Shown here one piece after another: positions 3,078-60,407 of a stretch of 64,000 nt of DNA. The notes under the pieces are model-generated. The model was not told the DNA's origin, searched no databases, and saw only the letters and a program-made list of their open reading frames with translations. The DNA is from Bacteriovoracaceae bacterium UBA4573 (lineage in GTDB: Bacteria > Bdellovibrionota > UBA1018 > UBA923). The stretch spans positions 4,129-68,128 of the forward strand of contig DGKJ01000053.1 of the NCBI GenBank assembly GCA_002387735.1, given 5' to 3'. Made by a program: the position numbers and the translations under genes. Numbering within the stretch: the stretch's first letter is position 1; every line of letters begins with the position of its first letter.

Positions 3078-3815
3078 ATGGGAGCACAGTGGAAACAGGC
3101 CGGCCGTGAACAGAACGCCAATAAAAAGGGCATTATCATTGGCAAGCTTGCTAAGGAAATTTCAGTAGCCGCCAAATTGGGTGATCCGAACCCGGAAAAC
3201 AACCCCAGGCTTCGAATGGCAGTCGAAGCGGCGCGCAAACATTCGGTTACGCGCGACACAATCGAACGGGCAATCAAAAAAGGGGCAGGGCTCTTAGACG
3301 AGCAAGTCAACTATGAGCTTGTGACCTACGAGGGGTTTTGTCCTCATCAAGTTCCAGTGATCGTCGAATGTTTAACCGAAAATCGAAACCGTACCGCCGC
3401 CGAAATTCGGGTATTATTTCGCAAAGGGCAACTGGGTAGTTCCGGTAGTGTGGCGTGGATGTTCGATCGCCTCGGTGTAATTGAAGCATCCACCGCGGAA
3501 GGTGGACTTGATATTGAGGGAGTAGCCATTGAAGCGGGGGCGCAGAATGTTGAGCCGATCGCTGGCGACGAGCTTAAACAAATGAATCCGGACCACAAAA
3601 CCGGTGCCCGGTTTATTTGTGAACCCCAAGATTTAGATTCTGTATCGAAAGCGGTAACAGCATTGGGCTGGAAAGTGGTTTCTGCGGAACTTAGTTATTT
3701 GGCAAAAAATAACGTTGAAATATCCGATGAGCAGAAAAAAGAAGTCACCGCATTTTTGAACGATATAGACGATTTCGATGACGTTCATCGTGTTTACGTT
3801 GGCCTAAAGTCTTAA
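3078..3815 (+). CDS. yebC: YebC/PmpR family DNA-binding transcriptional regulator
   Basis: 245 aa. The N-terminus MGAQWKQAGREQNANKKGIIIGKLAKEI..RLRMAVEAARKHSVTRDTIERAIKKG is the hallmark of YebC/PmpR. An RBS (AGAGG) precedes the ATG. Confidence 0.9.
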   Translation: MGAQWKQAGREQNANKKGIIIGKLAKEISVAAKLGDPNPENNPRLRMAVEAARKHSVTRDTIERAIKKGAGLLDEQVNYELVTYEGFCPHQVPVIVECLTENRNRTAAEIRVLFRKGQLGSSGSVAWMFDRLGVIEASTAEGGLDIEGVAIEAGAQNVEPIAGDELKQMNPDHKTGARFICEPQDLDSVSKAVTALGWKVVSAELSYLAKNNVEISDEQKKEVTAFLNDIDDFDDVHRVYVGLKS

Positions 3816-3827
3816 ATTCAGAGGTTT

Positions 3828-5504
3828 ATGGCGGAATCAAACGACTCCTCGAGTACTGCTGAAACACAAAAATCGTTCGGTGAACCCGGGCTTTCAACGG
3901 TGCTAGCGCGTGAAGTTGCGCGTCGACGTACTTTTGCGATCATTTCTCACCCCGATGCAGGTAAAACCACACTCACCGAAAAACTTTTGCTTTACGGCGG
4001 AGCCATTCACTTAGCAGGCGCTGTAAAATCGAAAACGAAAACAAAAGCCACGACTTCAGACTGGATGGAAATCGAAAAGCAGCGCGGTATATCGGTAACT
4101 TCAAGCGTGCTGCAATTTGAATACAAGGGCTACTGTATCAATTTGCTCGACACTCCGGGGCATAAAGACTTCTCCGAAGATACCTACCGTACCCTCACTG
4201 CTGCCGATGCCGCAGTGATGTTGATCGATGCTGCAAAAGGCGTTGAGGCTCAAACGCGAAAACTCTTCGAAGTATGCCGCATGCGTGGCATTCCTATTTT
4301 TACGTTCGTCAACAAGCTTGATCGTCCGGGACGAGACCCTATCGAACTGCTCGACGAGATCGAAAAAGTTTTAGGAATTCGTTCCTGTCCCATGACCTGG
4401 CCGATTGGAACCGGAGATCGATTTAAAGGCGTGTACGATCGCGAGAAAAAAGAGATCCTGTTTTTTCAAACCGAGGGGCAAGCGAACGTTAGCGGTCGCT
4501 TGAAGCCAAAGAAAGTGGGCCAACTTCAAGAGCTGGGGAGCGAGTTTGACGAAGAAACTCTTCAGAGCGTTGAATTAGTCGAATTGGCTGGGGATCCGTT
4601 CGATCATGAACGGGTATTGCGCGGCGAGTTAACTCCGGTGTTTTTTGGTAGTGCCATGAACAATTTTGGCGTGGAACATTTTCTAGAGCGTTTCATCGAG
4701 CTAGCGCCCCCTCCCGTCGGTCGAAAGACTTCTGATTCTCATTTGGCTGAGAAAAAACTCATAGAACCAACCTCGACCAAATTTTCGGCCTTCTTTTTTA
4801 AAATTCAGGCGAATATGGACCCTTCGCACCGCGATCGTGTCGCCTTTATGCGGGTTTGTTCCGGTAAGTTCACCCGAGGCATGACGGTAAAACACGTGCG
4901 GTTAGGCAAAGACGTCAAACTTGCGATGCCGGTGAATTTTTTTGGTCAGGAACGCACGGTAATTGAGGAAGCGTGGCCAGGCGATATCGTGGGTGTGTTG
5001 GACACCTCGGGCGATCTGCGTATTGGAGATACCCTAGCGCAGGGAGGGGGCTTTGAGTTCGAAGGTGTGCCGCAGTTTTCGCCAGAACATTTTGCATCCG
5101 TTACGATTCTTGATCCAATGAAACGCAAGCAACTTCAAAAGGGATTAGATCAGCTTTCAGAAGAAGGCGTGATCCAAGTTTACCGGCAGCGCGATCTTAG
5201 TGATAAAGACCCCGTCTTGGGCGCAGTGGGTGCGCTGCAGTTCGAAGTTCTCAAACATAGGTTACTGTCAGAATATTCGGTCAACGTGAATATTGAAAAA
5301 TTGTCCTACACCTGTGCGCGCTGGGTCGAGGGCGAAAACTTCGACGTCGACGGCTGCGAACGGCGAGAAGGTAACCGTTGTTTAGTGGACCGCGACGCTA
5401 ATCTAGTGGTTCTTTTTAAAAGCGATTGGGCGCTGCGTTGGGCGGAAGATAATCACAAAGGATTTCGCTTTCTAAAGACACCGCTTGCGAGACGGCGAAA
5501 CTGA
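3828..5504 (+). CDS. prfC: Peptide chain release factor 3 (GTPase)
   Basis: 558 aa. G1 motif AIISHPDAGKTTLTEKLL and DTPGHKDF are present, with RF3 length and C-terminal domains. Confidence 0.9.
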   Translation: MAESNDSSSTAETQKSFGEPGLSTVLAREVARRRTFAIISHPDAGKTTLTEKLLLYGGAIHLAGAVKSKTKTKATTSDWMEIEKQRGISVTSSVLQFEYKGYCINLLDTPGHKDFSEDTYRTLTAADAAVMLIDAAKGVEAQTRKLFEVCRMRGIPIFTFVNKLDRPGRDPIELLDEIEKVLGIRSCPMTWPIGTGDRFKGVYDREKKEILFFQTEGQANVSGRLKPKKVGQLQELGSEFDEETLQSVELVELAGDPFDHERVLRGELTPVFFGSAMNNFGVEHFLERFIELAPPPVGRKTSDSHLAEKKLIEPTSTKFSAFFFKIQANMDPSHRDRVAFMRVCSGKFTRGMTVKHVRLGKDVKLAMPVNFFGQERTVIEEAWPGDIVGVLDTSGDLRIGDTLAQGGGFEFEGVPQFSPEHFASVTILDPMKRKQLQKGLDQLSEEGVIQVYRQRDLSDKDPVLGAVGALQFEVLKHRLLSEYSVNVNIEKLSYTCARWVEGENFDVDGCERREGNRCLVDRDANLVVLFKSDWALRWAEDNHKGFRFLKTPLARRRN

Positions 5505-5554
5505 ATTTATCCTTATAGCTTCACTTTTATTCTTCGTACTGAAAGGAACATCCT

Positions 5555-6172
5555 ATGAAATTGGCTTCAGTTTTTTTAGCATTTCTGGCGCTCACCTCAC
5601 TTTCGGCCTCGGCCGCCGGTGAGCCGGTTAAAATGGAAATCAACACTTCGGAAAGTAAGGTTGAATGGTTTGCTAGCAAAGTTAAGGGTAAACACAACGG
5701 AACGATCGAAGTAGAGTCGGGTGAATTCGAACTTGATGGCAAGGGAATGATCAAGTCTGGAAAAATCGAAATCGATATGGATTCGATCAAAGTCTCCGAC
5801 ATCGAAGACGCGGAGGACAACGCGAAACTGGCAGGGCACTTAAAGTCCGACGATTTCTTTAACGCGGAAAAATGGCCAACGGCTACGTTCGTGATTAAAA
5901 CGGCGCTCCCACTGGGCAAGCGCAATAGCGATGGGTGGCAAAAATACACTCTCAAAGGTGACCTAACCATTCGCGACGTAACCAAACCGTTCACCGCCCA
6001 CGCCAACGTCAAAATCGCCGGTGAAGCGGCCGAAGCCACTGCGGAGTTAAACATCGACCGCACTCAGTGGAATGTAAAATATGGATCTGGTAAATTTTTT
6101 AAAGGTCTCGCCGATAGAATGATTCACGATGTGTTTAAACTAAAAATTGCATTGAAGGCTGAAAAAGACTAA
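5555..6172 (+). CDS. YceI-family periplasmic polyisoprenoid-binding protein
   Basis: 205 aa with a signal peptide. The SKVEWFASKVKGKHNGTIEVESGEFELDG pattern matches the YceI-like domain. The RBS is AAAGGAA. Confidence 0.8.
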   Translation: MKLASVFLAFLALTSLSASAAGEPVKMEINTSESKVEWFASKVKGKHNGTIEVESGEFELDGKGMIKSGKIEIDMDSIKVSDIEDAEDNAKLAGHLKSDDFFNAEKWPTATFVIKTALPLGKRNSDGWQKYTLKGDLTIRDVTKPFTAHANVKIAGEAAEATAELNIDRTQWNVKYGSGKFFKGLADRMIHDVFKLKIALKAEKD

Positions 6173-14524: not shown

Positions 14525-16117
14525 ATGAGTAAAAAGAAAACTTCAACCGGCTTATCGAACGGAATCAAGGTCTTTCTCGAATGGGTTGAGCGCACTGGAA
14601 ACAAGCTCCCGGATCCGGTGTTCTTATTCATCTACTTAACGGTGGCGTTGGTATTGGTTTCAGTAGTTTGTGCGCTTTTAGGACTTTCCGCTATTCACCC
14701 TACCCAAAAAAGTCCAGACGGCGGGGCCTTCGTCATTCGGGCGGCGAGTTTGTTGTCGCCTGCTAATATTCAAAAATTTTGGGTTGATATGCCGGCCACT
14801 TTTACGCACTTTCACCCGCTCGGCTACGTATTAGTCGTCATGCTAGGTGCGGGTGTGGCGGAACGTTCAGGACTCTTCGCGACGGCAATGCGGTTTGCGG
14901 TCAGTAAGGCGCCCGTGGCGCTTTTGACGCCACTGGTGGCCCTGATCGCTATGATTTCCAGCCACGCCGCTGATGCAGGTTACGTGGTGTTGATTCCCTT
15001 GGCTGGAATTTTATTCGCGGCCGCGGGGCGGCACCCTCTTGCGGGAATAGGTGCCGCATTCGCGGGCGTATCGGGCGGGTTTTCGGCCAACATTACGCCC
15101 GGACAGCTTGACGCACTTTTGCTCGGAATCACGGAAACAGCGGTGGTGGCAAGTAAACTTGACCCTAAGTGGACCGTGAATCTTGCAGGGAATTGGTGGT
15201 TTATCATCGGAATGACGCTCGTCTTTTTGCCGACGATTTGGTTTGTCACCGATCGAATTATTGAACCGCGGCTTGGGAAATGGACGCCGAGCGATTCAAG
15301 CCCAGTCGCAAATTCCGAAAAAAAGAATATCTCCACTGCCGAACGCAGAGGTCTGGGGCGAGCTGGTTGGGCTCTGCTCGGTGTTATAGGTTTGTGGGTC
15401 TTCATGGTGGTAGGACCTGGAGCACCCTTGCTTGGAAAAGGGGCGCCTGATGCTGCGTGGTACGTAAAAGCCGCACCCTTATTTAAGTCGCTCGTTTCGG
15501 CGTTCTTTTTATTGTTTCTCGCCTCTGGTTGGGCTTACGGTGCAGCTGCAGGCACGATAAAAAATCATCGCGACCTAGTTAAGATGATGGCCGATTCAAT
15601 GAAAGACATGGGCTATTATTTGGTACTCGCGTTTGTGGCGGCACATTTCGTTGCCATGTTTGGCTGGTCGAATCTTGGTTTGATTTTCGCAATTCATGGG
15701 GCCAACGGAATAGAAAGCACCGGGCTTCCAATGCCAGCCTTGCTCGTGCTCATTCTTTTGTTCAGTTCTGCACTCAATATTTTAATTGGTTCCGCGAGCG
15801 CAAAGTGGGCGCTGATGGCGCCAGTATTAGTGCCTATGCTCATGCTTCTTGGTGTGAGTCCCGAGGCTACGACGGCCGTGTATCGGGTAGGCGATGGCGC
15901 TACGAATATCATTACTCCGCTCATGGTGTATTTCCCATTGGTATTGGTGTTTGCCCAAAAATGGCGACCGGATTTTGGGCTCGGAAGCCTAACCGCGCTC
16001 ATGTTGCCGTATTCGGTAGCCATCCTGTTAGTTGGGACCTTGCTGGTACTGCTGTGGGTACTCGTTGGTGCGGAACTGGGACCTAACGCGCCATTGCACT
16101 ACATTTTGCCGAGGTAG
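14525..16117 (+). CDS. abgT: AbgT-family transporter (p-aminobenzoyl-glutamate / antimetabolite efflux family)
   Basis: 530 aa. The N-terminus LSNGIKVFLEWVERTGNKLPDPVFLFIYL and overall TM topology match AbgT/MtrF. Confidence 0.8.
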   Translation: MSKKKTSTGLSNGIKVFLEWVERTGNKLPDPVFLFIYLTVALVLVSVVCALLGLSAIHPTQKSPDGGAFVIRAASLLSPANIQKFWVDMPATFTHFHPLGYVLVVMLGAGVAERSGLFATAMRFAVSKAPVALLTPLVALIAMISSHAADAGYVVLIPLAGILFAAAGRHPLAGIGAAFAGVSGGFSANITPGQLDALLLGITETAVVASKLDPKWTVNLAGNWWFIIGMTLVFLPTIWFVTDRIIEPRLGKWTPSDSSPVANSEKKNISTAERRGLGRAGWALLGVIGLWVFMVVGPGAPLLGKGAPDAAWYVKAAPLFKSLVSAFFLLFLASGWAYGAAAGTIKNHRDLVKMMADSMKDMGYYLVLAFVAAHFVAMFGWSNLGLIFAIHGANGIESTGLPMPALLVLILLFSSALNILIGSASAKWALMAPVLVPMLMLLGVSPEATTAVYRVGDGATNIITPLMVYFPLVLVFAQKWRPDFGLGSLTALMLPYSVAILLVGTLLVLLWVLVGAELGPNAPLHYILPR

Positions 16118-16149
16118 TGCGTAGCGAAATTGCTACCGTACTCCATCGG

Positions 16150-17130
16150 CTACTTGTGCTGCATTAAAACGGCATCCGACACAAAAAACCGGGGGACGGT
16201 CTGTCTTGCGAGCTTAATTTTGTGGCGCATGAGTAGGACGTTGAGCGTGAACCGAAGAGCGCCCAAAAAAAACCGAACTTCTTTTCCGATCGGATACACC
16301 GCGAACTCTGGTTTGTAGGCGGTCACGCGCAGCCCGACACTTGAGAGATAGTTTCGAAATTCTTCAATACCCGGCTGCAGCAGTGACATGCTGTGGGTGC
16401 AGGCGATGAATTTGGTAGTTCTAAGTGCTGAGCAGAAAGTCAGCGCAGATCCCACAAACAATTTTAATCCTGCTACAGTGCACGGCGGGTCCATGAAAAT
16501 GAGACCATAGTTCTGAATTAGATCTGCGCTGGGAGGCATTTGAAGATCGTGGACTTTCGCTCGAATAGGAAAGTCGTGTTGAGCAGCGATATGCTGAATG
16601 CGTTGTATGATTGTGGGATCGATGTCGACTACGGTTACATTTTTAAATCCTCGTTTTGCGAGTTCCAGACTTAATAGGTCGTCGTCGCCTAAAAGCAAAA
16701 CTGGTGCGTCGCAGCCAATGTATTCCGCAATCAGATCGGCGCGTTCGAGTAAGTTTTTTTGACTGCAGGGGAGTTGGTTGAATTTGTGGTTCAGAATGGA
16801 ACTCGAATTCATACCCGTGGTCAAAGAGTTGCTGTTTGCATGGTGAATGTTTCGCACCACCTGTTCCGAAGCCAGATCCACGAGTTCGTTCCAGTGAGTG
16901 TTCACCAAATCTGGCAGATTGGGGCGGCGAATGGCCCCGCTAAAAAGAGTAAACAAGCCCGTCATGAGGGGGCGAAGTTGTTTTACGATCTTCGGTGATT
17001 TGAGTCGCTGAAGAGCTTCAATATGGGCGCGAGCTTCTGAGACGAGCAGGTAGTTGTTTACGAGCGACTCCCAGGTGGGAAGCCCCGCTTCAAGTGAGTT
17101 TTGGACTTCAGCTTGATTTGAAGATTCCAT
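16150..17130 (-). CDS. BpsA-like (DUF43) aminopropyltransferase, putative long/branched-chain polyamine synthase
   Basis: 326 aa. A Gly-Asp-Asp-Asp motif (LLLGDDDLLSLELAKRG) and a downstream IFMDPP motif are present, as recalled for N4-bis(aminopropyl)spermidine synthase family proteins. It sits in an operon with speD. Confidence 0.5.
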   Translation of the reverse strand: MESSNQAEVQNSLEAGLPTWESLVNNYLLVSEARAHIEALQRLKSPKIVKQLRPLMTGLFTLFSGAIRRPNLPDLVNTHWNELVDLASEQVVRNIHHANSNSLTTGMNSSSILNHKFNQLPCSQKNLLERADLIAEYIGCDAPVLLLGDDDLLSLELAKRGFKNVTVVDIDPTIIQRIQHIAAQHDFPIRAKVHDLQMPPSADLIQNYGLIFMDPPCTVAGLKLFVGSALTFCSALRTTKFIACTHSMSLLQPGIEEFRNYLSSVGLRVTAYKPEFAVYPIGKEVRFFLGALRFTLNVLLMRHKIKLARQTVPRFFVSDAVLMQHK

Positions 17131-17746
17131 AAAACCCTTTCGCCAGCAGAAAACCGCCGAATAAGATAGTTAGGCCCGCTGTAAATCTTTGTATCAATGC
17201 GAGCGTACGGCTTGATTTAGTAACTCTGGCAAACCGCCCGAGAAATGAAAACCATAGGAAGTCTCCCATAAATATTCCGCTAAGAAAAACTACCGGAGTA
17301 AGTGCCGTGGCAGAAGGGGAAAAAACAGGCAAAGTGGAGGTCGTCCACAAGACCCAGAATGCCAAGAATGTCGGATTCGATAGGCAAATGCTGGCACCAA
17401 ACCAGAAGTCGAAGTGGCGGAATCGCGCTTCTCTCATGCGGACATCGGTTCGGGGAGGTTGTTTTCTTTGAAGGTGTTCCTTTAAGCCAAGGCAAATGAG
17501 CAAAAAACCAGCAATCAAAAATAGATATTCGGTTTGCTGCTTAGAAATGAACTTAGCGTAACCGAAATAAGCGAGACCGGCGAGTGCGACGTCGGCAAGT
17601 ACCACGCCCAAAACGAACGCAAAGGTACTGCGGCCGGAACGGTGCATTTGCAGAACTTGTAAATTTATTGGGCCGATTGGTGCGGAGGAAACAATACCGC
17701 CTGTGAAACCACATAAAGCGAATGCGAGTACGTCTATTACTTCCAC
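17108..17746 (-). CDS. LysE/RhtB-family translocator (small-molecule exporter)
   Basis: 212 aa with 6 predicted TM. The N-terminal FTGGIVSSAPIGPINLQVLQ resembles the LysE family. It overlaps the speD stop. Confidence 0.55.
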   Translation of the reverse strand: MEVIDVLAFALCGFTGGIVSSAPIGPINLQVLQMHRSGRSTFAFVLGVVLADVALAGLAYFGYAKFISKQQTEYLFLIAGFLLICLGLKEHLQRKQPPRTDVRMREARFRHFDFWFGASICLSNPTFLAFWVLWTTSTLPVFSPSATALTPVVFLSGIFMGDFLWFSFLGRFARVTKSSRTLALIQRFTAGLTILFGGFLLAKGFYGIFKSS

Positions 17747-18120
17747 TCTTCGACTCGCTGTTCGGAAAAATCTGGCAGACGTTGCGCAGCACCGCGACCT
17801 CTTAGAATTGTTTCGCTGCGATATCGATTGATTTTGAACAATGCCAAAATAGTTTTTTCAAACACCCCAAGATCAAAACCATCGTTGCAGATATAGAGGT
17901 CCATGCTTAAGTATTGGTGCTCGGGGTAAGTATGAATTGTGAAATGAGACTCCGCCAGTATGCAAACGTGAGTGAGCCCCTGGGGCTCGAAAGGGTGGTT
18001 AGTTTCCGCCACCACAGTAAACTGCGAACGAACCAAATCTAGTATGGAATCAACGGTAAAGGCAGTTATTTTGTCCTGGAGCCAAATGTCGAGTATGAGG
18101 TGTTTGCCGAAGGTATTCAT
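17737..18120 (-). CDS. speD: S-adenosylmethionine decarboxylase proenzyme (class 1, pyruvoyl-dependent)
   Basis: 127 aa. The self-cleavage site LAESHFTIHTYPE and the HLILDIW start are canonical for small bacterial/archaeal AdoMetDC. Confidence 0.85.
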   Translation of the reverse strand: MNTFGKHLILDIWLQDKITAFTVDSILDLVRSQFTVVAETNHPFEPQGLTHVCILAESHFTIHTYPEHQYLSMDLYICNDGFDLGVFEKTILALFKINRYRSETILRGRGAAQRLPDFSEQRVEEWK

Positions 18121-18177
18121 GTTGTATTCCGCCCTTTTTGCCTGCGCTTTATTCAGTAGAGAAATATAGAAGATGTT

Positions 18178-18513
18178 TTAACTGCGGAGCGGTGGACGGT
18201 GGATTGACTGGTAAAATTCCTGCGGCGGTGCAAGATTGGCGGGTAATCGGTGACGCTTTGTAAGAAGTGTTTTGTTGGACGTTTCAGAATCGGTGGCTAA
18301 TTCTTCGGCGCTCAGATAGTCGACCTCTTCGGGAGTGCTACTTTGGTCGAGGGTGTGGGGGGCGTCGGTGTTGTCCTGAAAATAGAACTGGGGAGTGTTT
18401 TGAGAGTGAGTCGTGGCTACAGAGGATTTACGCACAAACACTGTTGTCGAGTTTAAGACCTCGACGACAAAAACCAACAACACCATCCATTGCGCTGCAC
18501 GGTAAAAGCCCAT
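18178..18513 (-). CDS. Hypothetical small membrane-anchored protein
   Basis: 111 aa with one N-terminal TM (WMVLLVFVVEVL). Low-complexity otherwise. Confidence 0.3.
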   Translation of the reverse strand: MGFYRAAQWMVLLVFVVEVLNSTTVFVRKSSVATTHSQNTPQFYFQDNTDAPHTLDQSSTPEEVDYLSAEELATDSETSNKTLLTKRHRLPANLAPPQEFYQSIHRPPLRS

Positions 18514-18619
18514 CTTCCTATAAGCTTAAGTTCATTTTTAAAAACTGACAAGGTTATCGCCGCATGGCGGGATGTTGTTTGCCTTTCTTATCCTTTTTTC
18601 GGCAATAACCTTCAAGAAT

Positions 18620-20188
18620 TCATTGTGAAAGGCCTTGCAAGCCTTTCGGTGTGAAAGTTCGGTCTAATATTTCAAAAAAAATGTGAACGCCCAATGCCAT
18701 AAGGGCGGCGGGAATAGCACCACGTAAGATGAGTGTGACGTCATTGAGAGCGAGCCCCGTTACGATGGGAGCACCATAACCGCCTGCACCGATAAAGGCG
18801 GCCAAAGTGGCCGTTCCAACATTGATAACCGCAGCCGTTTTAATGCCGGCCAAAATAGTTCTGAAAGCGAGCGGAATCTTGATGGTTCGAAGAAGTCGAA
18901 AACCTACTAGCCCCAACGTTTGGGCTGACTCAATGAGGCGTTTATCGATGTTCTGAATGCCCACACAAGTGTTTCGAACAATAGGAAGTAGCGCGTAAAG
19001 AAAAAGGGCGATGAATGCTGGGGGCTTTCCGATTCCCAGAACCGGTATTAAAAAACATAACAATGCTAAAGAAGGTACTGTTTGAATAAGACCCGTCACC
19101 AAAAGGACGAGTTGTGTGAGCCAAGCCGACCGTGAAGCAAAAAGACCAAGTGGAATTCCTAGTGTTACGGCTGCAAAAAGCGAAAGGCTTACTAAAAAAG
19201 CATGTTCCTTGGTACGAAACCAAATTCTGCTCGTGTCAGGGGCGGCAGTTCGATTGTATTGCGCAGAGTCGAGCGGAGGGGTTTCCGGCGCGCCATGATT
19301 GCCATCTAAAGATATTAAAAAGGACCTAGCAATTTCGGCAAAAGATTTTCGAGCAATTTCTTTTTCAGCATTCAATTCGATCATTTTATTTTCTGAAATA
19401 CTACCTTCAAGGCTTCGCAGTCTGTGCCAAATGTCTGGGTTTTTTTCTGCAAAATCAGATCGGGCTAGAAGAACAGCGAAGTAATCCGGAAAAAATTTTT
19501 GATCGTCTTCAAGTACGACGAGATCAAGTTTTTTTACTTTGGCATCTGTGGAGTAAATTTCCATCAGATCAATTTTATTAGCAGCAAGCGCTTCATAAGC
19601 GAGAGAATGTTCCATTCTTCTGACAAAAAAATCTTTCATTTTGTAATGTGAAAGCATTGCGTAATAGCCATCTTTGCGTTGTGCAAATTCATAGCTAATT
19701 CCGAACCGGGCCCGAGGTACCTTTTTTAAATCGGAGATATTTTTTAAATCGTGTTCTTCGGCAAATCTGCGAGAGGTTGCGATCGCGTAAGTATTATTGA
19801 ATCCAAGAGGCAGTGAAATTGTTAAACCCTTGGTTTCGAGTGCGGTCTTGAGATCATTTATGTTTTTTAATTGAGGCTGCTTTAAAATTTCTTCACTAAT
19901 TGTACCGGTGTATTCGGGGTAAACGTCAATCTCGCGGGCGAGTAAAGCCTGGTACACGATTCCCGTGCCGCCGAGTCCGATTTTTCTGTCGACCGATTCA
20001 CTGCGTTGCCTGTTCTTGATCTCGGACTCCATCGTTTGAGCAATGATTTCAGCTAAAATATAGTTTTCCGTAAAAACTTTCGAACCTACAGTGAATGAGT
20101 TCGCGTAAAGGGGCGTGAAGCCAAAAAAAAATGTTAACCCAAAAAGCAAAGCAGCGTAAAGAGTCGAGCCTTTAAAATTTAATTCCAT
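18620..20188 (-). CDS. Osmoprotectant (glycine betaine/choline-type) ABC transporter, fused substrate-binding + permease protein
   Basis: 522 aa. The N-terminal periplasmic binding domain resembles OpuAC/OpuCC. The C-terminal 6-TM permease carries the EAA-like loop (ESAQTLGLVGFRLL). Confidence 0.8.
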   Translation of the reverse strand: MELNFKGSTLYAALLFGLTFFFGFTPLYANSFTVGSKVFTENYILAEIIAQTMESEIKNRQRSESVDRKIGLGGTGIVYQALLAREIDVYPEYTGTISEEILKQPQLKNINDLKTALETKGLTISLPLGFNNTYAIATSRRFAEEHDLKNISDLKKVPRARFGISYEFAQRKDGYYAMLSHYKMKDFFVRRMEHSLAYEALAANKIDLMEIYSTDAKVKKLDLVVLEDDQKFFPDYFAVLLARSDFAEKNPDIWHRLRSLEGSISENKMIELNAEKEIARKSFAEIARSFLISLDGNHGAPETPPLDSAQYNRTAAPDTSRIWFRTKEHAFLVSLSLFAAVTLGIPLGLFASRSAWLTQLVLLVTGLIQTVPSLALLCFLIPVLGIGKPPAFIALFLYALLPIVRNTCVGIQNIDKRLIESAQTLGLVGFRLLRTIKIPLAFRTILAGIKTAAVINVGTATLAAFIGAGGYGAPIVTGLALNDVTLILRGAIPAALMALGVHIFFEILDRTFTPKGLQGLSQ

Positions 20189-20982
20189 AGGTCGAGAAAC
20201 TCCTGCGACGGTTTCTGGGCAGTGATAAACGTTCGCACGAAATCATCGTGCGGGTTTAAATGGATATCTTTAAATGTTCCCGACTGTACGACCGAACCCT
20301 TGTTCATCAAATAGAGAGTATTTCCAAGAGTTGCGGCTTCCATGAGGTCGTGAGTTACGAGTACGACTGTTTTTTTTAGCGACTGAAAAATTTCCTTCAA
20401 ACTCTGCTGCAAGTCTGATCTCACGACCGGGTCTAAAGCACCAAGAGGTTCATCTAATAGTAAATAACCGGGGTCGTGCATGAGTGCGCGAGCTAGCGCG
20501 ACGCGCTGTCTTTGGCCGCCGCTCAATTGGTGCGGGAACCTCTTTAGAAAAAGTTTTTCGAGATGCACGAGCTGAAGCAGTTCTTCGATGCGTGCGTTAA
20601 TGCGTTCGGATTGCTCGGTACGTGTTAATTGGGTTCCGAAAGGCCCGATCGAGAGATTCTCGTAAACACTGAGGTGCGGAAATAGCCCGCCCTCTTGTAT
20701 GACGTAGCCAATGTTTCGGGCATAAACTTTTGGCGGGATGTGGGTAGGAATTTGGCCTTTTACTTTTACGGTGCCCGATGTTGGCGCCTCGAGTCCGGCG
20801 ATGAGTCTCAATAAAGTCGACTTGCCACAGCCACTAGGCCCAATAAATACATGGGTTTTCCCTGGTTCGAGCTTTAGTGAAAGATTGTTTACAGCTGCGC
20901 TGTGGTGAGACGAATCTTGAGAATCAGGGTTAGAATCTTTCGCTGAACGATATAATTTCGATACGTTTTCAAAAAAAATCAT
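20179..20982 (-). CDS. ABC transporter ATP-binding protein (osmoprotectant uptake ATPase)
   Basis: 267 aa. Walker A GPSGCGKST, signature LSGGQRQRVALARAL and Walker B LLLDEP are present. It overlaps the downstream permease gene. Confidence 0.85.
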   Translation of the reverse strand: MIFFENVSKLYRSAKDSNPDSQDSSHHSAAVNNLSLKLEPGKTHVFIGPSGCGKSTLLRLIAGLEAPTSGTVKVKGQIPTHIPPKVYARNIGYVIQEGGLFPHLSVYENLSIGPFGTQLTRTEQSERINARIEELLQLVHLEKLFLKRFPHQLSGGQRQRVALARALMHDPGYLLLDEPLGALDPVVRSDLQQSLKEIFQSLKKTVVLVTHDLMEAATLGNTLYLMNKGSVVQSGTFKDIHLNPHDDFVRTFITAQKPSQEFLDLWN

Positions 20983-21105
20983 AGGTTTCTGGCGAAAAAT
21001 TTAGGTTTTTAAATCGTTTCGCGGCTTTCGTCGCAGGCCGCACTTGTTGATATGTAAGAGAAAAAAGACCCGTCGTTTTCGCTTAGGGCCTTTTTATTTT
21101 TGAAA

Positions 21106-21183
21106 TGGGGTGATCGAGGGGTCTCGAACCCCCGACCTTCGGGACCACAACCCGACGCTCTAACCAACTGAGCTACGACCACC
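21106..21183 (-). tRNA. tRNA-His (anticodon GTG) with genomically encoded G-1 and 3' CCA
   Basis: Folded manually from the reverse complement GGTGGTCGTAGCTCAGTTGGTTAGAGCGTCGGGTTGTGGTCCCGAAGGTCGGGGGTTCGAGACCCCTCGATCACCCCA. The 7-bp acceptor stem is preceded by the extra G-1:C73 pair typical of tRNA-His. D-stem GCTC/GAGC, anticodon stem TCGGG/CCCGA with loop TTGTGGT, and T-loop TTCGAGA are all present. Confidence 0.9.
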
Positions 21184-21202
21184 GTCCAAAGTTCGAAAAA
21201 TT

Positions 21203-21231
21203 CTTATAGTGGGTTCGGGGCGAGGAATCAA
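21203..21231 (-). promoter_or_regulatory. Sigma70-like promoter candidate for tRNA-His
   Basis: On the minus strand: TTGATT, 17 nt, TATAAG, ending ~20 nt upstream of the tRNA 5' end. Confidence 0.3.
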
Positions 21232-21254
21232 CCCTCAAATGAGCCAAAAAAGGA

Positions 21255-22016
21255 GTGTATTTTGGGCTCCGGTCGACATATAAAGAACACAGAAATCAAT
21301 TAGTTAAGGACATTTATTGCATGAGCTGTTTAGCTATGGACCCGCGCATTATTGCGCTTGAAAAGTCTCGCTATCGCCCGCCGCGGCCTCCTAAAAAGAA
21401 GCCGCCAAATGGATTTATACCATTCTTATTGATTTTGCTGCTCTTGGCGGCGGCGGCCCTTCATGCCCGCCAGTCCCACGCAGGCGTGTTTGACCTTCCT
21501 AGTTTCCTAGAAGCGGGGCAGTGGTCCTTCGGTGTGGAACCAGAAGTTATCATTAGCAATGGCACCGGTGCCGGGATCAACTTCAAACCGCGCTTTGGCG
21601 TGAACAATAACCTCAATTGGCAAGCCATCATTGGCACGGGCACCGGGTCCCGCAAATTTCGTATTGGAGCTATCGCTGACTTCGAATGGTTTCCGGATCA
21701 CGAAAAACAACCCGGCATCGCCACTCCTTTTATGGTGAAGTACAGTCGTGTCGACGACGACGGCGTGCTTGCCATTGGCGTCATGCCGCTCCTTTATAAG
21801 TCGTTTGACGGCGAAGGTGGTCGGTATACGCCGTTTATTTCGTTTCCTATCGGGTGGGACATGCGTAGCGCCAAGGTTACGGGTTTTACCCAGGTGGCAC
21901 TTGGAAGTTTGTTCAAACTACCTACGATGGAGAAATTTAAATACGTGCTCGAAGCCGGATTCAACATTCACCAATCACATAGCTACATTTCGGGCGGCTT
22001 TACTTACTACCCCTGA
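21255..22016 (+). CDS. Hypothetical exported protein, possibly an outer-membrane beta-barrel
   Basis: 253 aa. A basic n-region is followed by the hydrophobic FIPFLLILLLLAAAALHA. Alternating amphipathic segments and a C-terminal aromatic (..GGFTYYP) are present. The start codon is uncertain. Confidence 0.35.
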   Translation: MYFGLRSTYKEHRNQLVKDIYCMSCLAMDPRIIALEKSRYRPPRPPKKKPPNGFIPFLLILLLLAAAALHARQSHAGVFDLPSFLEAGQWSFGVEPEVIISNGTGAGINFKPRFGVNNNLNWQAIIGTGTGSRKFRIGAIADFEWFPDHEKQPGIATPFMVKYSRVDDDGVLAIGVMPLLYKSFDGEGGRYTPFISFPIGWDMRSAKVTGFTQVALGSLFKLPTMEKFKYVLEAGFNIHQSHSYISGGFTYYP

Positions 22017-33094: not shown

Positions 33095-34810
33095 TTAATA
33101 GACAACACCCATGCCGTCATAGCGCGGATCTGCGGCGGCTTCCCACTGGGCAGTTTTTTCTCGGCGTATGAGCATCTGCGGATAGGTGTACACGCCACTT
33201 TGTACGTCAACCTCGTAACCAGCTTCGCGAAGGGCCTCAACGGCATCGGGCGCCATGAAAGATTCGACCTCGGCAATAAATTGTTTGCCCTGGACCCAAC
33301 GTGGGTGAATGCGGGCGCTGGCGATTGCCATTTTTGCGTCCAATTTGTGAATGAAATAATTTTCCAGAAATAGCGTAATGCTGGAGTGGGTGCGTAAGCC
33401 GCCTGATGCGCCCAAGACCGCTACGGGCGTTTTTCCGTCGAATAACAAAGTCGGGCTCATAGTAGAGCGAGGTCTTTTTCCAACGGCGGCGGAGTTTGGT
33501 CTTCCGGGTTCGGCGTCGAAGTCCGAGAGTTCGTTGTTTAGTAAGAAACCATGTTGCGGAACGGTAACGCCCGACCCAAAAATTTCTTCTATTGTGTTAG
33601 TGATTGAAACAGCGAGCCCCTGATTATCGATCGTACTAATTTGAGCAGTAGACCCATACTCGGGGAGACGCGGAAGGGGGCGCTGCGATTTTGGGAGCTG
33701 GTCCTTTAAAAGGTGCGTGACTCGCGTGCCAATCTTAGATTTTTTTTCATTTATCGATTTTTCGATTTCGATCCATGCTTGTTTTTCGGCATTAGATTCA
33801 AAATATTTTTGTGGATCGATCGTGGCGAACCCACGATCTGCAATAGTTTCAGTTCGAAGTTTCTGAAAATACGCCAGTGCTTCGACTGAAGTTATGTATC
33901 GCTCGACCGAATCATGACTGGGAACGGTTTTATCTCGATAATAGTGTTCTAAAAATCGAAGAGTCGCCCCTACTGCAATCGAAGAACCACTGGGAGGACC
34001 TTGCATGTAAGCAGTCTTTCCGAAAATTTTAAAAGTGATCGGTTTTTCAAAAGATACTTTGTAATCTTTCAAGTCTTGTTCCGATAGGCGAACACCAAGC
34101 TTTTGGGCTTCCGTTAACCAGGATTTTGCGAGTGGGCCCGTATAGAAACTGCTTCCCCCGTTATTGGCAATTGTACGCAGAGTTTTGGCCATCTGAGGCT
34201 GTCGCAACAAGTCTCCGCGAACTAGCGGGGTTTGCCCATTTTTCGAAAAAGTGCTTTTGGTGGCGGCGAATTGTTCGATTCGTGACCAGTTCTTTTTAAT
34301 ATCAGCTTCGACATTGCTAGATATAGGAAAGCCATTTTGGGCCACTTCAATTGCAGGCTGCATGATGGTTTTCCAAGGCAGTTTACCCCAGCGCTTGTGA
34401 GCGGCCGCAAAACCCGCCACCGTGCCTGGTACCCCCACGGGATTAGGGCCGGTGACGCGTTGGGGATAATAAGGAATAATTTTATCGTCAGCGTCGAAAA
34501 ACATTTTTGGGTGAGCCGACTTCGGTGCGACTTCTCGGTGATTTACACAACTGACCGAGCCGTTTTTCCCAACCAAAATAAAACCGCCGCCACCGATGCC
34601 CATTTTGTGGGGAGTCGTAACGTTCACTACGAACGCTGCCGCGATTGCGGCGTCGACCGCGTTTCCGCCTTTTTTAAACATTTGAATACCAGCCTGGGTC
34701 GCGTAGTCGCTCGAAGTGGCGATCCCCCAACCAAACGCCGCAAGGGGGGCGCAAACGTGAAAAAGCAACAAACTCAAGCAGATGCGCGCGGTCTTCTTTA
34801 TGGTAATCAC
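33095..34810 (-). CDS. ggt: Gamma-glutamyltransferase (Ntn hydrolase), exported
   Basis: 571 aa with a signal peptide. TTHKMGIGGGGF, LGASGG and the autoprocessing Thr context are present. Confidence 0.85.
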   Translation of the reverse strand: MITIKKTARICLSLLLFHVCAPLAAFGWGIATSSDYATQAGIQMFKKGGNAVDAAIAAAFVVNVTTPHKMGIGGGGFILVGKNGSVSCVNHREVAPKSAHPKMFFDADDKIIPYYPQRVTGPNPVGVPGTVAGFAAAHKRWGKLPWKTIMQPAIEVAQNGFPISSNVEADIKKNWSRIEQFAATKSTFSKNGQTPLVRGDLLRQPQMAKTLRTIANNGGSSFYTGPLAKSWLTEAQKLGVRLSEQDLKDYKVSFEKPITFKIFGKTAYMQGPPSGSSIAVGATLRFLEHYYRDKTVPSHDSVERYITSVEALAYFQKLRTETIADRGFATIDPQKYFESNAEKQAWIEIEKSINEKKSKIGTRVTHLLKDQLPKSQRPLPRLPEYGSTAQISTIDNQGLAVSITNTIEEIFGSGVTVPQHGFLLNNELSDFDAEPGRPNSAAVGKRPRSTMSPTLLFDGKTPVAVLGASGGLRTHSSITLFLENYFIHKLDAKMAIASARIHPRWVQGKQFIAEVESFMAPDAVEALREAGYEVDVQSGVYTYPQMLIRREKTAQWEAAADPRYDGMGVVY

Positions 34811-34902
34811 TAATAATCCTTTAATATCATATGGTTATGCATGAATTAATTTTGACTAAAATAGTATGACTTTAGTCGGCCCAGCCATATATAATAGAAG
34901 GG

Positions 34903-36624
34903 ATGGTGGGGGAATTCGTCAATCGGATTCGAACGGGGCCGCGTTTTGCGTTGCTCCTTGTAATGGTCTTCACGCCGGTGCTTTTTTGCGCCAAGGCCGG
35001 TGCAGAAATTCGAGCTTGCGAAAAGGAACCCCGAAAAATTATTCCGGGCTTTGACGAATCAGAAGCTCGAGTGCGTGCCCGTATCGATGCTGGCGAGACG
35101 GTTGACTTGGCTGGACTTGAAGCCTGTTCCGCAAAAATTCAAAACTGTGCAACCGATCTTTCACCGATTTCAATTGAAACAGTCGAATTGTTCAAAAATT
35201 TTTCACTCTCCAAAACATCAAAAAAAATGGTGACCGGCAAATTCAAAAAAGAAACCAGAGAAGCCCTCGATAACGGTGACGATCTAATTAGTTGCGACCG
35301 CGACGGTCTAGCCGCGCGTACCGCGGCAGCAGTTGCTATCGCCAGCGCGGCAGTTCAGGCCGAGGAAGATCTTGAGGCCTTAAAAGCCGACCGCATCGCG
35401 GACGAAAAAGAGCGACTGCGGCTGGCTCTAATCGCGTCACCACTGATGTGCCGAGATCTCGAAGAGTTTAATGAACTAGCGGGGATCTCCGCGCAGGTCG
35501 ATGACTTTCAGGATCGAATAGTAGAAGAAGCCGCGGTGCTTGAAGTGGTTTACGGTATGTGCAAAGGGCTAAAAACCGCATCTTCCAAATGGAAAAGATC
35601 GCGGGGTAAAAAGGGCGGATTAGATCTTGAACGAAAACTTCTCGCTTCTTTGCGAGCGCATTCAGATTTACCTAAGTTCGCCCTTTACGAAAAGTGGCCC
35701 GGTTGTCCGTGTGACAAAGACAAGTCGAGCCGTAAGATCAAAGGGGTTTGTTTCAAGGGGCTGACCCCCTATGATCCGATCGACGAACGAGTACCGCAGT
35801 TGCTCGAGCGATATGCAGAAAAACTTCAGGCCTGGGCAGTGGCCAATGGTATGACGCTCAGTTCGGTTCAGATGGGTGGTTGCTCCTTTGCTCGTCTGGC
35901 GCGTGCCGGCGGTCATGAAGACGGAACATTCGATCATAGTGATATCAGTTCTCACGCCGAGTCGAGTGCGTGCGATCTGTACAGTGCCACTTTCGAAGAG
36001 ACGGTAAAGTCGGGTAAAGATCGAGTTAAAACTAAAACCAAAACGGTTAAATTTTTTGACCTACGAAGTAGGAAAAGAAAAAAAATTCAGTCACACCCTT
36101 TTGCAGACGCGTTTCAAAAATATTTAAATTGGATGGATAAAGAAAAACCATTAATCGAGCGAATGGCATTTAAGCGTCATGATGTGGAATTAAAACGCGA
36201 AATAGTGAAACGGGTAAATAGTTCGAAAGATCGCACTAAAGGCAAACACCACGATATTGAAGAAAAAAAATCGAAGAGCCGAATTCCCGAGGCGATTTAT
36301 GACTACCGAAAATTGGCCGATGAGCTGGAAAAAAATGGTTGTCCGCTAAAAGATGAAAATTCCTGCGATCAACTGCGCTTGGGATTTCTTTTAATAAATG
36401 CAGGACGCGATGTAGGGTTTCTCACGATTGCCCCCGGTGTCGGCAGTCACGATGGCCACGTTCACTTAGGTGCTTCGCCCGACGAACAAGACTCTCTTCG
36501 TTTGACCAGCGGGTTGATGCCCACCGAGTGTCACGATAAACTTATCGACTACTACGTGATTCGAGCCGCCGGCCTTGAACTGCCGTACCCGCAGTGCGCC
36601 GAGCGCTTTAAAATGTCTCGTTGA
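34903..36624 (+). CDS. Exported protein with C-terminal LAS-superfamily (M15/M23-like) zinc-hydrolase motifs; putative cell-wall peptidase
   Basis: 573 aa with signal peptide. A charged/coiled N-terminal half is followed by H338-x5-D344 and SSHAESSACD (nt 35914-35976), resembling SxHxxGxAxD. A downstream HVH (SHDGHVH, nt 36445-36465) resembles HxH. Confidence 0.4.
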   Translation: MVGEFVNRIRTGPRFALLLVMVFTPVLFCAKAGAEIRACEKEPRKIIPGFDESEARVRARIDAGETVDLAGLEACSAKIQNCATDLSPISIETVELFKNFSLSKTSKKMVTGKFKKETREALDNGDDLISCDRDGLAARTAAAVAIASAAVQAEEDLEALKADRIADEKERLRLALIASPLMCRDLEEFNELAGISAQVDDFQDRIVEEAAVLEVVYGMCKGLKTASSKWKRSRGKKGGLDLERKLLASLRAHSDLPKFALYEKWPGCPCDKDKSSRKIKGVCFKGLTPYDPIDERVPQLLERYAEKLQAWAVANGMTLSSVQMGGCSFARLARAGGHEDGTFDHSDISSHAESSACDLYSATFEETVKSGKDRVKTKTKTVKFFDLRSRKRKKIQSHPFADAFQKYLNWMDKEKPLIERMAFKRHDVELKREIVKRVNSSKDRTKGKHHDIEEKKSKSRIPEAIYDYRKLADELEKNGCPLKDENSCDQLRLGFLLINAGRDVGFLTIAPGVGSHDGHVHLGASPDEQDSLRLTSGLMPTECHDKLIDYYVIRAAGLELPYPQCAERFKMSR

Positions 36625-37366
36625 ACAACTCTTTGCAGAAACCAGATTTTCGATGGGCGTCGATCGCCAGGCGAACGCTTCGCGCGAATGATTTTGCTAA
36701 TTCAGGGTGGTCCATAAAAATTTTTCTCAGACTTCTGGATAATTCGATCTGAACGCCCTGTTGCGCGGTTCGATTGACAATATTTCGCGGGTGCATTCCC
36801 GCAAATTTTCTAGCTTCTTCCCACGGTAAAATGTGAAGGCTTGGCATGGTTCGTTCTGCGAAGTCCTCTAGACGAGCCGCGATTTTATCTCGCAATAAAC
36901 TGTTTTGACCGCCCAAGATCACAGTGGCCCGTTCATTTTCTATTGGGTTTCCGAACCAGTAAAACCCGTGCACGCTCACGCTAGTGGAGGCTCGTTCGAG
37001 CATTTCAAGGGCTCGGGGTTCGTCGAACAAAGTGCTGGGAACATGGTGATCCCAGGCCGGTTCTTCGGGAAGAAGGGATTCAAACTTATACAGCGAGTGT
37101 TCGCCGCCGGCTATCAAGTCGGCGAGTTCCGACGTGCCTGGTTCGATATTACCGCCGTGAATTGCGAGCACTAAAATTGGCGACCGTCGCAAAATAGCCG
37201 CAACTCGAAAGTCGCGGTCTTCGGTGAATTCTTTTCGTAGTTCAAAAAAACTATCGAATCGATCGATGTGGTTTCCGTGAGTATTGTTCGCATAGGCGGC
37301 TCCGCCGGCCACCAAAAAGGTAGCAGCAAATGTGTAAATTTTTCGAAGAGTAATATTTACCGACAT
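36608..37366 (-). CDS. Poly-gamma-glutamate hydrolase family (PF05908-like) protein, exported
   Basis: 252 aa with signal peptide. LAIHGGNIEPGTSELADLIAG matches the HGGxIExGT signature I recall for PghP/YjqB-type gamma-PGA hydrolases. Confidence 0.5.
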   Translation of the reverse strand: MSVNITLRKIYTFAATFLVAGGAAYANNTHGNHIDRFDSFFELRKEFTEDRDFRVAAILRRSPILVLAIHGGNIEPGTSELADLIAGGEHSLYKFESLLPEEPAWDHHVPSTLFDEPRALEMLERASTSVSVHGFYWFGNPIENERATVILGGQNSLLRDKIAARLEDFAERTMPSLHILPWEEARKFAGMHPRNIVNRTAQQGVQIELSRSLRKIFMDHPELAKSFARSVRLAIDAHRKSGFCKELFNETF

Positions 37367-57574: not shown

Positions 57575-57646
57575 AAGTCATTTTCCGCATGTTTAATGAG
57601 AGATGGGCCCATTGCATCATATCGGAGTTGATGAATCAATTGATCG

Positions 57647-60381: not shown

Positions 60382-60407
60382 TAAAAACAACGTTGGGGGG
60401 ATTTCGA

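Follow-up and report, generated by a model that had tools for sequence, protein, structure and literature searches.

A cassette of three overlapping genes for a putative aminopropylated amine

In the 64,000-nucleotide (nt) stretch of Bacteriovoracaceae bacterium UBA4573 analyzed here (contig DGKJ01000053.1; the whole stretch is hereafter called the window), three overlapping genes on the minus strand encode a small pyruvoyl S-adenosylmethionine decarboxylase (AdoMetDC, SpeD), a LysE-superfamily membrane carrier and a 326-amino-acid (aa) protein of the BpsA family (PF01861). By a narrow margin over its negation, we favor the reading that this operon makes and exports an aminopropylated amine: SpeD would supply decarboxylated S-adenosylmethionine (dcSAM), the 326-aa protein would act as a divergent aminopropyltransferase and the carrier would export the product, which is probably a non-classical one.

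An earlier note on this DNA had described these three open reading frames (ORFs) with overlapping stops and starts, and all of them were recovered. Residue numbers given below refer to the predicted proteins.

17737-18120, minus strand: speD, class 1b pyruvoyl S-adenosylmethionine decarboxylase proenzyme, 127 aa; Pfam AdoMet_dc (PF02675), E 1.7e-19
17108-17746, minus strand: LysE-superfamily membrane carrier, 212 aa, GTG start; Pfam LysE (PF01810), E 1.3e-16
16150-17130, minus strand: divergent PF01861 (BpsA-family) protein, putative dcSAM-dependent aminopropyltransferase, 326 aa; Pfam BpsA_C, E 1.7e-21

The overlaps amount to 10 nt between speD and the LysE gene and 23 nt between the LysE gene and the BpsA-like gene, and because of them the cassette genes are translationally coupled. 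The Pfam E-values of the three proteins lie far beyond chance, and independent gene callers predicted the same three genes on at least 20 metagenomic contigs carrying the identical protein. At the level of annotation the family names are already known: in an Oligoflexia metagenome-assembled genome (MAG) the NCBI product names are 'S-adenosylmethionine decarboxylase' (HRK02538.1) and 'bis-aminopropyl spermidine synthase family protein'. New are the exporter-coupled clade without the acidic lid of BpsA, to which the 326-aa protein belongs, and the occurrence of speD-linked PF01861 genes outside thermophiles.

SpeD looks like a genuine AdoMetDC

Pyruvoyl arginine (SpeDA) or ornithine (SpeDC) decarboxylases have arisen several times from small SpeD homologs (PMC10407285). 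Because of these repeated changes of function, SpeD was examined for neofunctionalization as an ornithine decarboxylase (ODC) or arginine decarboxylase (ADC). The positions considered are the following.

17944-17952, minus strand: predicted self-cleavage site Glu57/Ser58 (ESH)
17920-17934, minus strand: His63-Pro66 (HTYPE)
17884-17895, minus strand: Cys78 (YICN)

The best PDB match of SpeD was the AdoMetDC of T. maritima (1tlu, 1.2e-12). Ser58, His63 and Cys78 align with Ser63, His68 and Cys83 of that enzyme, and the processing serine and the catalytic histidine and cysteine are thus kept. The motif LAESHFTIHTYPE, to which the earlier note had pointed, occupies residues 55-67. The proline of the HT[WY]PE motif is retained; bona fide AdoMetDC has it without exception, whereas SpeDA has lost it (PMC10407285). 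The central region FEPQGLTHVCILAESHFTIHTYPEHQYLSMDLYICN agrees with validated AdoMetDC domains (FEPQG...AESHF.IH.WPE; Fig. S5, PMC10407285) and does not fit the SpeDC pattern QLIETSL.SGHFA...FSC. On these sequence marks, the proline and the central motif, an ODC or ADC function was rejected. A reservation is the score of 72.9 bits against the NCBIfam equivalog TIGR03330, which has a cut-off of 75.65. With the PF02675 match, the conserved Ser, His and Cys, the proline and the AdoMetDC-type central motif, the proposed small pyruvoyl decarboxylase is borne out, and SpeD looks like a genuine AdoMetDC.

The 326-aa protein has a BpsA-type core

The 326-aa protein matched BpsA_C (PF01861) with 77 bits (cut-off 27). 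Its best PDB sequence matches in phmmer were BpsA of T. thermophilus (Tt-BpsA, 6j27, 1.5e-13), BpsA of T. kodakarensis (Tk-BpsA, 5xnc, 7.5e-7) and a P. furiosus homolog (2qm3). An AF2 model built from an 18-sequence clade alignment reached a pLDDT of 87.8 and a pTM of 0.86, and Foldseek ranked BpsA structures first for it (6j27 at 4.4e-12, 5xnc at 1.4e-11), with generic class I methyltransferases at ~1e-9. Placement in the DUF43/BpsA family, as the earlier note had it, is therefore upheld by Pfam, by the PDB sequence matches and by Foldseek; no grouping with ordinary S-adenosylmethionine (SAM) methyltransferases was found, as the BpsA structures lead both by sequence and by fold.

The comparison with the Thermococcus and Thermus enzymes, 5xnc and 6j27 being the best PDB matches, showed a homology limited to the core. 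In hhalign, the match to a canonical BpsA-type profile (probability 99.85%, E 8.7e-31) was restricted to residues 118-289 of the clade profile, ~170 core residues. The N-terminal ~100 residues are all-helical in the AF2 model and are without homology to the BpsA N-domain that hhalign could detect. The domains in the AF2 model are as follows.

Residues 4-98: helical N-domain
Residues 106-115: linker
Residues 124-280: Rossmann core
Residues 283-303: basic amphipathic helix
Residues 315-325: C-terminal strand

Weak secondary matches of the 326-aa protein to generic methyltransferase families were seen in Pfam and NCBIfam. Together with the class I methyltransferase-like fold and the several clade loci that have no adjacent speD (see below), these would suit a core that uses SAM for methyl or 3-amino-3-carboxypropyl transfer, or a SpeD that supplies a different amine. 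We regard this as very improbable, since the acidic GDDD motif, which pairs with the amine of dcSAM, is invariant and retained, since SpeD carries residues of the AdoMetDC and not the SpeDC type and keeps the proline lost in SpeDA, and since adjacency or fusion to speD is found family-wide.

A clade of PF01861 proteins without the acidic lid of BpsA

To our knowledge, the characterized PF01861 enzymes are two, both from (hyper)thermophiles. For the comparison with them, the defining features of BpsA were taken from a 2026 review (PMC12979288) and the sequence of Tk-BpsA was recovered from PDB alignments. The clade of the 326-aa protein was defined by the signature Q-x-P-C-[ST] ~28 residues ahead of GDDD, which is thus present by construction in its 110 members among 248 aligned PF01861 cores. 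The following features of the 326-aa protein are used below.

16762-16776, minus strand: Q-L-P-C-S, residues 119-123, which bears the clade signature Q-x-P-C-[ST]; Gln119 occurs throughout the family, whereas Pro121 and Cys122 are clade-specific
16678-16689, minus strand: GDDD, residues 148-151, invariant in 248 of 248 aligned PF01861 cores
16201-16281, minus strand: basic amphipathic helix, residues 284-310 by AF2 secondary structure, before the last strand
16171-16188, minus strand: F-F-V-S-D-A, residues 315-320, aligned to N-W-Y-K-S-Y of Tk-BpsA; the protein ends 6 residues on

BpsA (EC 2.5.1.128; T. kodakarensis 5xnc/5xnf/5xnh, T. thermophilus 6j27/6j28) has the PF01861 family and the Rossmann core in common with the 326-aa protein and is also partnered with dcSAM derived from AdoMetDC. 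Invariant in Tk-BpsA, Tt-BpsA and the 326-aa protein are the Gln, an Arg, GDDD, DxD, the Asp of DPP, Tyr290 and the C-terminal Ser. GDDD, which in BpsA (Tk Gly157-Asp160) positions the aminopropyl group of dcSAM (PMC12979288), and IFMDPP (residues 211-216) had both been read correctly in the earlier note. Two of the residues that activate the acceptor in Tk-BpsA, Asp225 and Tyr290, are kept as Asp214 (of MDPP) and Tyr279, which are invariant or nearly so. The other two are not: Glu259 aligns with Met248/Ser249, in a column that holds S, M, L or I in the clade and is never predominantly acidic, and Tyr316 is replaced by Phe316 (clade column F 73, L 13, Y 8). Where the 326-aa protein has Pro121 and Cys122, Tk- and Tt-BpsA have Tyr and Val. 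Ser318 is family-wide and is followed by Asp319, which hardly varies in the clade.

The most apparent difference lies at the C-terminus. The acidic lid of BpsA (Tk ...ELYDDEE; Tt DEE) is absent, as the 326-aa protein terminates 8 residues past Ser318 with ...FFVSDAVLMQHK, whereas Tk-BpsA goes on with ...EGSKGFEDEITVGQELYDDEESS. In the review, this acidic cluster is the 'true aminopropyl carrier region' and determines product specificity: Tk-BpsA aminopropylates protein carboxylates of its own lid in a ping-pong relay (PMC12979288). In the numbering of PDB 5xnc the cluster is Glu341 and Asp344-Glu347, and in the review Glu339 and Asp342-Glu345 (PMC12979288), a shift of two residues; the 5xnc numbering, with an offset for a 20-residue tag, fits Gly157, Asp225, Tyr290 and Tyr316, and the motif E-x-x-D-D-E-E is unambiguous. 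The 326-aa protein further differs from Tk- and Tt-BpsA in its N-domain, which is unrelated by sequence, in the clade-specific Pro121, Cys122 and Asp319 and the basic amphipathic helix (hydrophobic moment 0.43-0.83 in 16 of 18 clade members, with net basic charge), in its non-thermophilic host and in having a LysE or SMR carrier as fixed partner.

The shortened tail is typical of the clade. The median length past the conserved Ser was 12 aa, compared with 37 aa in other PF01861 proteins, and none of 114 Q-x-P-C proteins had the acidic-tail motif. A rough neighbor-joining (NJ) tree of the 248 cores, made without bootstrap, placed the 326-aa protein in a clade of ~129 sequences that excludes Tk- and Tt-BpsA, at distances of 1.7-2.2 from these two, compared with 0.67 between them; in the same tree, Tk- and Tt-BpsA clustered with AdoMetDC-fused forms. 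An exhaustive profile search against representatives at 50% identity returned 1741 relatives at E ≤ 1e-3, 130 of them at E ≤ 1e-30. The Q-x-P-C clade is real and moderately diverse; ~110 clusters (50% identity) carry the signature, having lost the acidic lid and being exporter-coupled, and they bear on the question whether PF01861 catalysis depends on the ping-pong lid mechanism.

An orthodox BpsA would convert spermidine to N4-aminopropylspermidine or N4-bis(aminopropyl)spermidine, and the cassette would then yield thermophile-type branched polyamines in a mesophile, exported by LysE. The retained PF01861 core with GDDD, the DPP Asp and Tyr290, the closeness to Tt- and Tk-BpsA in sequence and fold and the adjoining speD fit such an enzyme. 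The branched penta-amine moreover has a quaternary nitrogen, and the models nearest to the carrier found in place of LysE at one related locus are quaternary-ammonium efflux transporters (see below). It is nevertheless an unlikely reading, as the acidic cluster, which according to the review acts as carrier and sets the specificity for branched products (PMC12979288), is wholly missing, the equivalents of Glu259 and Tyr316 are Met/Ser and Phe, the N-domain is non-homologous and the NJ tree, though without bootstrap, puts the protein in a separate clade. The branched product of the earlier note can thus not be deduced from this enzyme. Because key BpsA hallmarks are missing, the product is probably not a classical branched polyamine, and with the acceptor pocket changed and a basic helix present the classical N4-branched products are unlikely.

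The enzyme gene is paired with a carrier gene

The carrier scored 61.1 bits against Pfam PF01810 (cut-off 25.6), and a simple hydropathy scan gave four hydrophobic regions above threshold. Related loci were annotated with hidden Markov models (HMMs), which gave 12 independent clade loci, some on MAG or metagenome fragments cut at contig ends; all attributable ones came from Oligoflexales/Bdellovibrionota MAGs. In 10 of these 12 (the window, L001, L005, L006, L083, L085, L086, L089, L112 and L114) a LysE gene lay directly upstream of the enzyme gene. The pairing was kept at protein identities of 29-36%, with the two genes overlapping in several loci and a few bases to ~200 nt apart in others. 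The LysE link put forward in the earlier note is therefore a conserved one. The gene speD adjoins in four of the 12 loci (the window, L001, L112 and L004), and the full speD-LysE-enzyme cassette is also present in L001 (35% identity) and L112.

The two loci outside the pairing differ from each other. In L003 the enzyme gene stands alone, with no carrier partner. In L004 there is no LysE gene; instead, a gene of the SMR family (PF00893, 1.4e-28) overlaps the stop codon of the enzyme gene. The NCBIfam models nearest to this SMR protein were, in order, SugE (1.4e-23), Smr, Qac and MdtI ('multidrug/spermidine efflux', 1.3e-11), all far below the equivalog cut-offs. Of all observations, this replacement of LysE by another family of cation carriers speaks most strongly for a carrier that handles the product of the enzyme. 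MdtJI, the SMR spermidine exporter of E. coli, and the LysE/ArgO exporters of basic amino acids are likewise small secondary carriers that expel organic cations, but the MdtI model for the L004 protein, like the LysE/ArgO/Rht models for the window carrier, scored far under its equivalog cut-off. A literature search for polyamine export by the LysE family found none and was uninformative, as 'LysE' also matched the verb 'lyse'.

Characterized LysE/RhtB members export amino acids, and we know of no LysE-family member that was shown to export a polyamine. The carrier might accordingly be an ordinary amino-acid exporter (of the Lys, Arg, Thr or homoserine type) while the product of the enzyme stays in the cell, and the lone enzyme gene of L003 would agree with such separate functions. 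We consider this rather improbable, because the pairing is kept in 10 of 12 loci at 29-36% identity, L004 exchanges LysE for a different cation exporter, and the pairing is nearly confined to the clade: LysE adjoins 2 of 160 lower-scoring PF01861 ORFs, both of which are truncated clade members, and a LysE or SMR gene lies beside one further low-scoring ORF.

A search for LysE homologs with a word prefilter returned three proteins. The only other LysE homolog among them, P0265 (33% identity), is encoded between a divergent phosphatidylserine-decarboxylase-like (pyruvoyl) gene and a gene for a 196-aa class I methyltransferase (trio at L173 3261-5367 and L174 1917-4023), an order that parallels the window cassette: pyruvoyl decarboxylase, LysE, methyltransferase-fold enzyme. 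The 613-aa P0128, considered as a LysE fusion, was rejected; its N-terminal 297 aa are of low complexity and without HMM match, and its start is probably mis-called. L001 has the closest complete cassette of another organism. There, a BrnT/BrnA-like toxin-antitoxin pair directly follows the enzyme gene (3175-3753), and phosphatidylserine decarboxylase is encoded on the other strand 1.5 kb downstream (4559-5587).

speD-linked PF01861 genes in apparently non-thermophilic lineages

The closest labeled records belong to MAGs of the Oligoflexia, Oligoflexales and Bdellovibrionota type. IVYWREL residues make up a fraction of 0.40 in 44 proteins of the window, which translates to a growth optimum of roughly 40 °C. 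By this amino-acid composition the host is not a thermophile, in line with the mesophile-like genome that the earlier note had assumed.

The fetched loci contained 160 PF01861 ORFs of greater distance (duplicates counted); in 86 of these speD lies no more than 1.5 kb away, and in 6 it is fused to the ORF. Such speD-linked genes are abundant, among others, in Bradyrhizobium, Rhodopseudomonas, Myxococcota, Gaiellaceae and other Actinomycetota, and the assumption of the earlier note that the family is mainly hyperthermophilic did not hold. Across L007-L082 and L090-L166, a speD homolog is frequent within ~1 kb of the PF01861 gene, for example in Rhodopseudomonas pseudopalustris DSM 123 (L026) and Bradyrhizobium (L021); further examples are L032 (Gaiellaceae) and L010 (Actinomycetota). 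Most of these speD-linked proteins have an IYTG motif and a Cys-rich C-terminal extension and not the acidic tail of Tk- and Tt-BpsA. In the 2026 review, bpsA orthologs are 'strikingly restricted' to thermophiles (PMC12979288). The frequency of speD-linked PF01861 genes in apparently non-thermophilic lineages, judged by taxonomy and not by checked growth temperatures, conflicts with this, though strict orthology is in question. Literature searches on BpsA homologs of mesophiles and on polyamines of Bdellovibrio returned nothing relevant.

Many proteins combine AdoMet_dc and BpsA_C in one chain, for example P0006, P0007, P0052 and P0077, and in Asgard archaea P0081, P0109 and P0120. In these, AdoMetDC and the PF01861 core are coupled by fusion, and in the window cassette by an operon of overlapping genes; unlike the cassette, the fusions have no carrier gene between the two parts. 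The bacterial fusions (P0006, P0007, P0052, P0072, P0077 and P0098) keep the acidic tail D/E-L-Y-x-D-x-E-S and cluster with Tk- and Tt-BpsA in the NJ tree, and the Asgard fusions gave no score for the acidic-tail motif (P0109 tail). In three proteins of 667-924 aa (P0223, P0235 and P0253), a Q-x-P-C-type BpsA_C core is fused to Spermine_synth (PF01564), which gives two aminopropyltransferase-type domains per chain. The speD adjacency and the fusions to AdoMet_dc and Spermine_synth tie the family to dcSAM and polyamines.

As a side observation, in L002 (5711-7575) the end of the gene for the AdoMetDC-fused P0006 (506 aa) overlaps by 4 nt with a second BpsA-like gene, which the contig end truncates. 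The two look like tandem paralogs, and the N-domain of the second gene product also has Cys-x2-Cys.

A proposed function for the cassette

From these features we infer dcSAM use, aminopropyl transfer and export as follows. SpeD would self-cleave to the pyruvoyl enzyme and decarboxylate S-adenosylmethionine to dcSAM. The 326-aa enzyme would bind dcSAM through Gln119, GDDD, Asp169/Asp171, Asp195 and Asp214-Pro215 and pass the aminopropyl group to an amine acceptor. The transfer would probably be direct, as in SN2 enzymes of the SpeE type, or run through the clade-specific Asp319; the ping-pong relay over lid carboxylates of Tk-BpsA is unlikely, because there is no C-terminal acidic lid. Conversion of spermidine to N4-bis(aminopropyl)spermidine is likewise unlikely, because the acceptor pocket is changed (Glu259 to Met/Ser, Tyr316 to Phe, Cys122 and the basic helix). 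The LysE-family carrier, or the SMR protein in one relative, would finally move the cationic product out of the cytoplasm.

Several results weigh against a system that makes and exports an aminopropylated amine. The window carrier is far from the characterized equivalogs, with 27 bits compared with a cut-off of 184 for the RhtB subfamily and 16 compared with 214 for LysE. In seven clade loci (L005, L006, L083, L085, L086, L089 and L114) no speD lies beside the LysE-enzyme pair within the available sequence, and context therefore does not prove dependence on dcSAM there; in five of them (L005, L006, L083, L085 and L086) the pair is followed by pyruvate kinase, with no speD within 6 kb. A Pfam search of ~50 ORFs in the 64-kb window found no speE, speA, speB, CASDH/CASDC, HSS or other polyamine gene that would point to a source of the acceptor. 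Lastly, with the acidic lid, Glu259 and Tyr316 lost, the acceptor could be of quite another kind, and even the chemistry could differ.

The nearest analog of the system as a whole, likewise a dedicated extra pair of AdoMetDC and aminopropyltransferase, is found in P. aeruginosa, which has a second speD/speE operon (PA14_63110/63120, homologs of PA4773/PA4774) upstream of pmrAB. Its polyamine acts at the cell surface and outer membrane and not in the bulk metabolism of the cytoplasm, and it is linked to outer-membrane protection (PMC4358008, citing Johnson et al. 2012). This operon differs in having a spermidine synthase of the SpeE family, no LysE or SMR gene within the pair and spermidine as product.

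More tentatively, and with clearly less confidence than in the operon function as such, the Q-x-P-C clade may consist of lid-independent PF01861 aminopropyltransferases with an undescribed product, made for example on an amine of the guanidino or amino-acid type or on an envelope component, that is passed to a dedicated LysE/SMR carrier, which would make it the first polyamine exporter of the LysE family. A small acidic signal-anchored protein encoded upstream of speD (see below) might serve as carrier in trans, acceptor or extracellular counter-ion, and the speD-linked PF01861 enzymes might form an unexplored system by which mesophilic bacteria diversify their polyamines. A new polyamine as product would extend bacterial polyamine chemistry and add a new class of polyamine exporters; the product could also be ordinary.

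A possible fourth gene upstream of speD

18178-18513, minus strand: candidate gene 57 nt upstream of speD; its 111-aa product has a hydrophobic segment at the N-terminus and is acidic in the middle

The 111-aa protein had no match in Pfam or NCBIfam, and its small ORF was called as a gene on independent contigs. Similar small ORFs (106-126 aa) lie directly upstream of speD in three of the four speD-bearing cassettes (the window, L112 1756-2136 and L004 5095-5415), and among the fetched loci they were found solely upstream of speD. Besides the hydrophobic segment near the N-terminus and an acidic middle of low complexity, they have in common the motif EV..[ST]..FVR and, at the C-terminus, [RH]PP. 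The small ORF may add a fourth component to the system, such as an acidic protein that pairs with a polycationic product.

It could also be part of a system directed at the envelope or at protein, in which the enzyme docks to the membrane with its basic amphipathic helix and aminopropylates a lipid head-group, an envelope precursor or the small acidic protein, with LysE or SMR as flippase or scaffold. The clade-wide helix (283-303) stands where canonical BpsA has its acidic lid, but it is modeled confidently inside the globular domain, and soluble proteins often contain amphipathic helices. The LysE proteins have weak matches to the sulfolipid-addressing Sap family PF11139 (2.8e-4 and 7.3e-7), which however stay below the gathering threshold. 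The surroundings of P0265, with a phosphatidylserine-decarboxylase-like gene and a class I methyltransferase, would suit a lipid-directed function, yet such a trio could equally be an amino-acid decarboxylase, an N-methylase and an amine exporter. The acidic signal-anchored ORF precedes speD in three of four speD-bearing cassettes, but is missing from 8 of the 12 clade loci. Aminopropylation of protein carboxylates has a precedent in the lid of Tk-BpsA (PMC12979288). None of these hints is strong and, like an orthodox BpsA, an envelope-directed enzyme is improbable; synthesis and export of an aminopropylated amine is preferred.

Other features of the window

Rfam, applied to 15500-21500 and to ten related loci, gave no riboswitch or leader RNA, and a regulatory RNA at the cassette was rejected, as only a tRNA was found. 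A scan for promoters and terminators gave sites that were fewer than or about equal to those in shuffled sequence. Upstream of the cassette, on the same strand, lie:

18620-20982, minus strand: ABC transporter with an ATPase and a fused OpuAC substrate-binding/permease protein (glycine-betaine/choline type)
21109-21182, minus strand: tRNA gene, preceding the ABC transporter

The OpuAC-permease/ABC pair was considered as a component of the system and rejected, since it is not conserved beside the cassette in related loci.

Elsewhere in the window, a run of gamma-glutamyl-related genes occupies 33095-38848 on the minus strand:

33095-34810, minus strand: gamma-glutamyltranspeptidase
36608-37366, minus strand: poly-gamma-glutamate hydrolase
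37366-38118, minus strand: CofE-like F420-0:gamma-glutamyl ligase
38105-38848, minus strand: Vut_1/YhhQ-type transporter

A cluster at 56126-61703 encodes an Alg9-like GT22 mannosyltransferase, a GT2 protein, a B12-binding radical SAM enzyme and an outer-membrane protein of the alginate-export type, and may be a locus for surface glycan or lipid modification.

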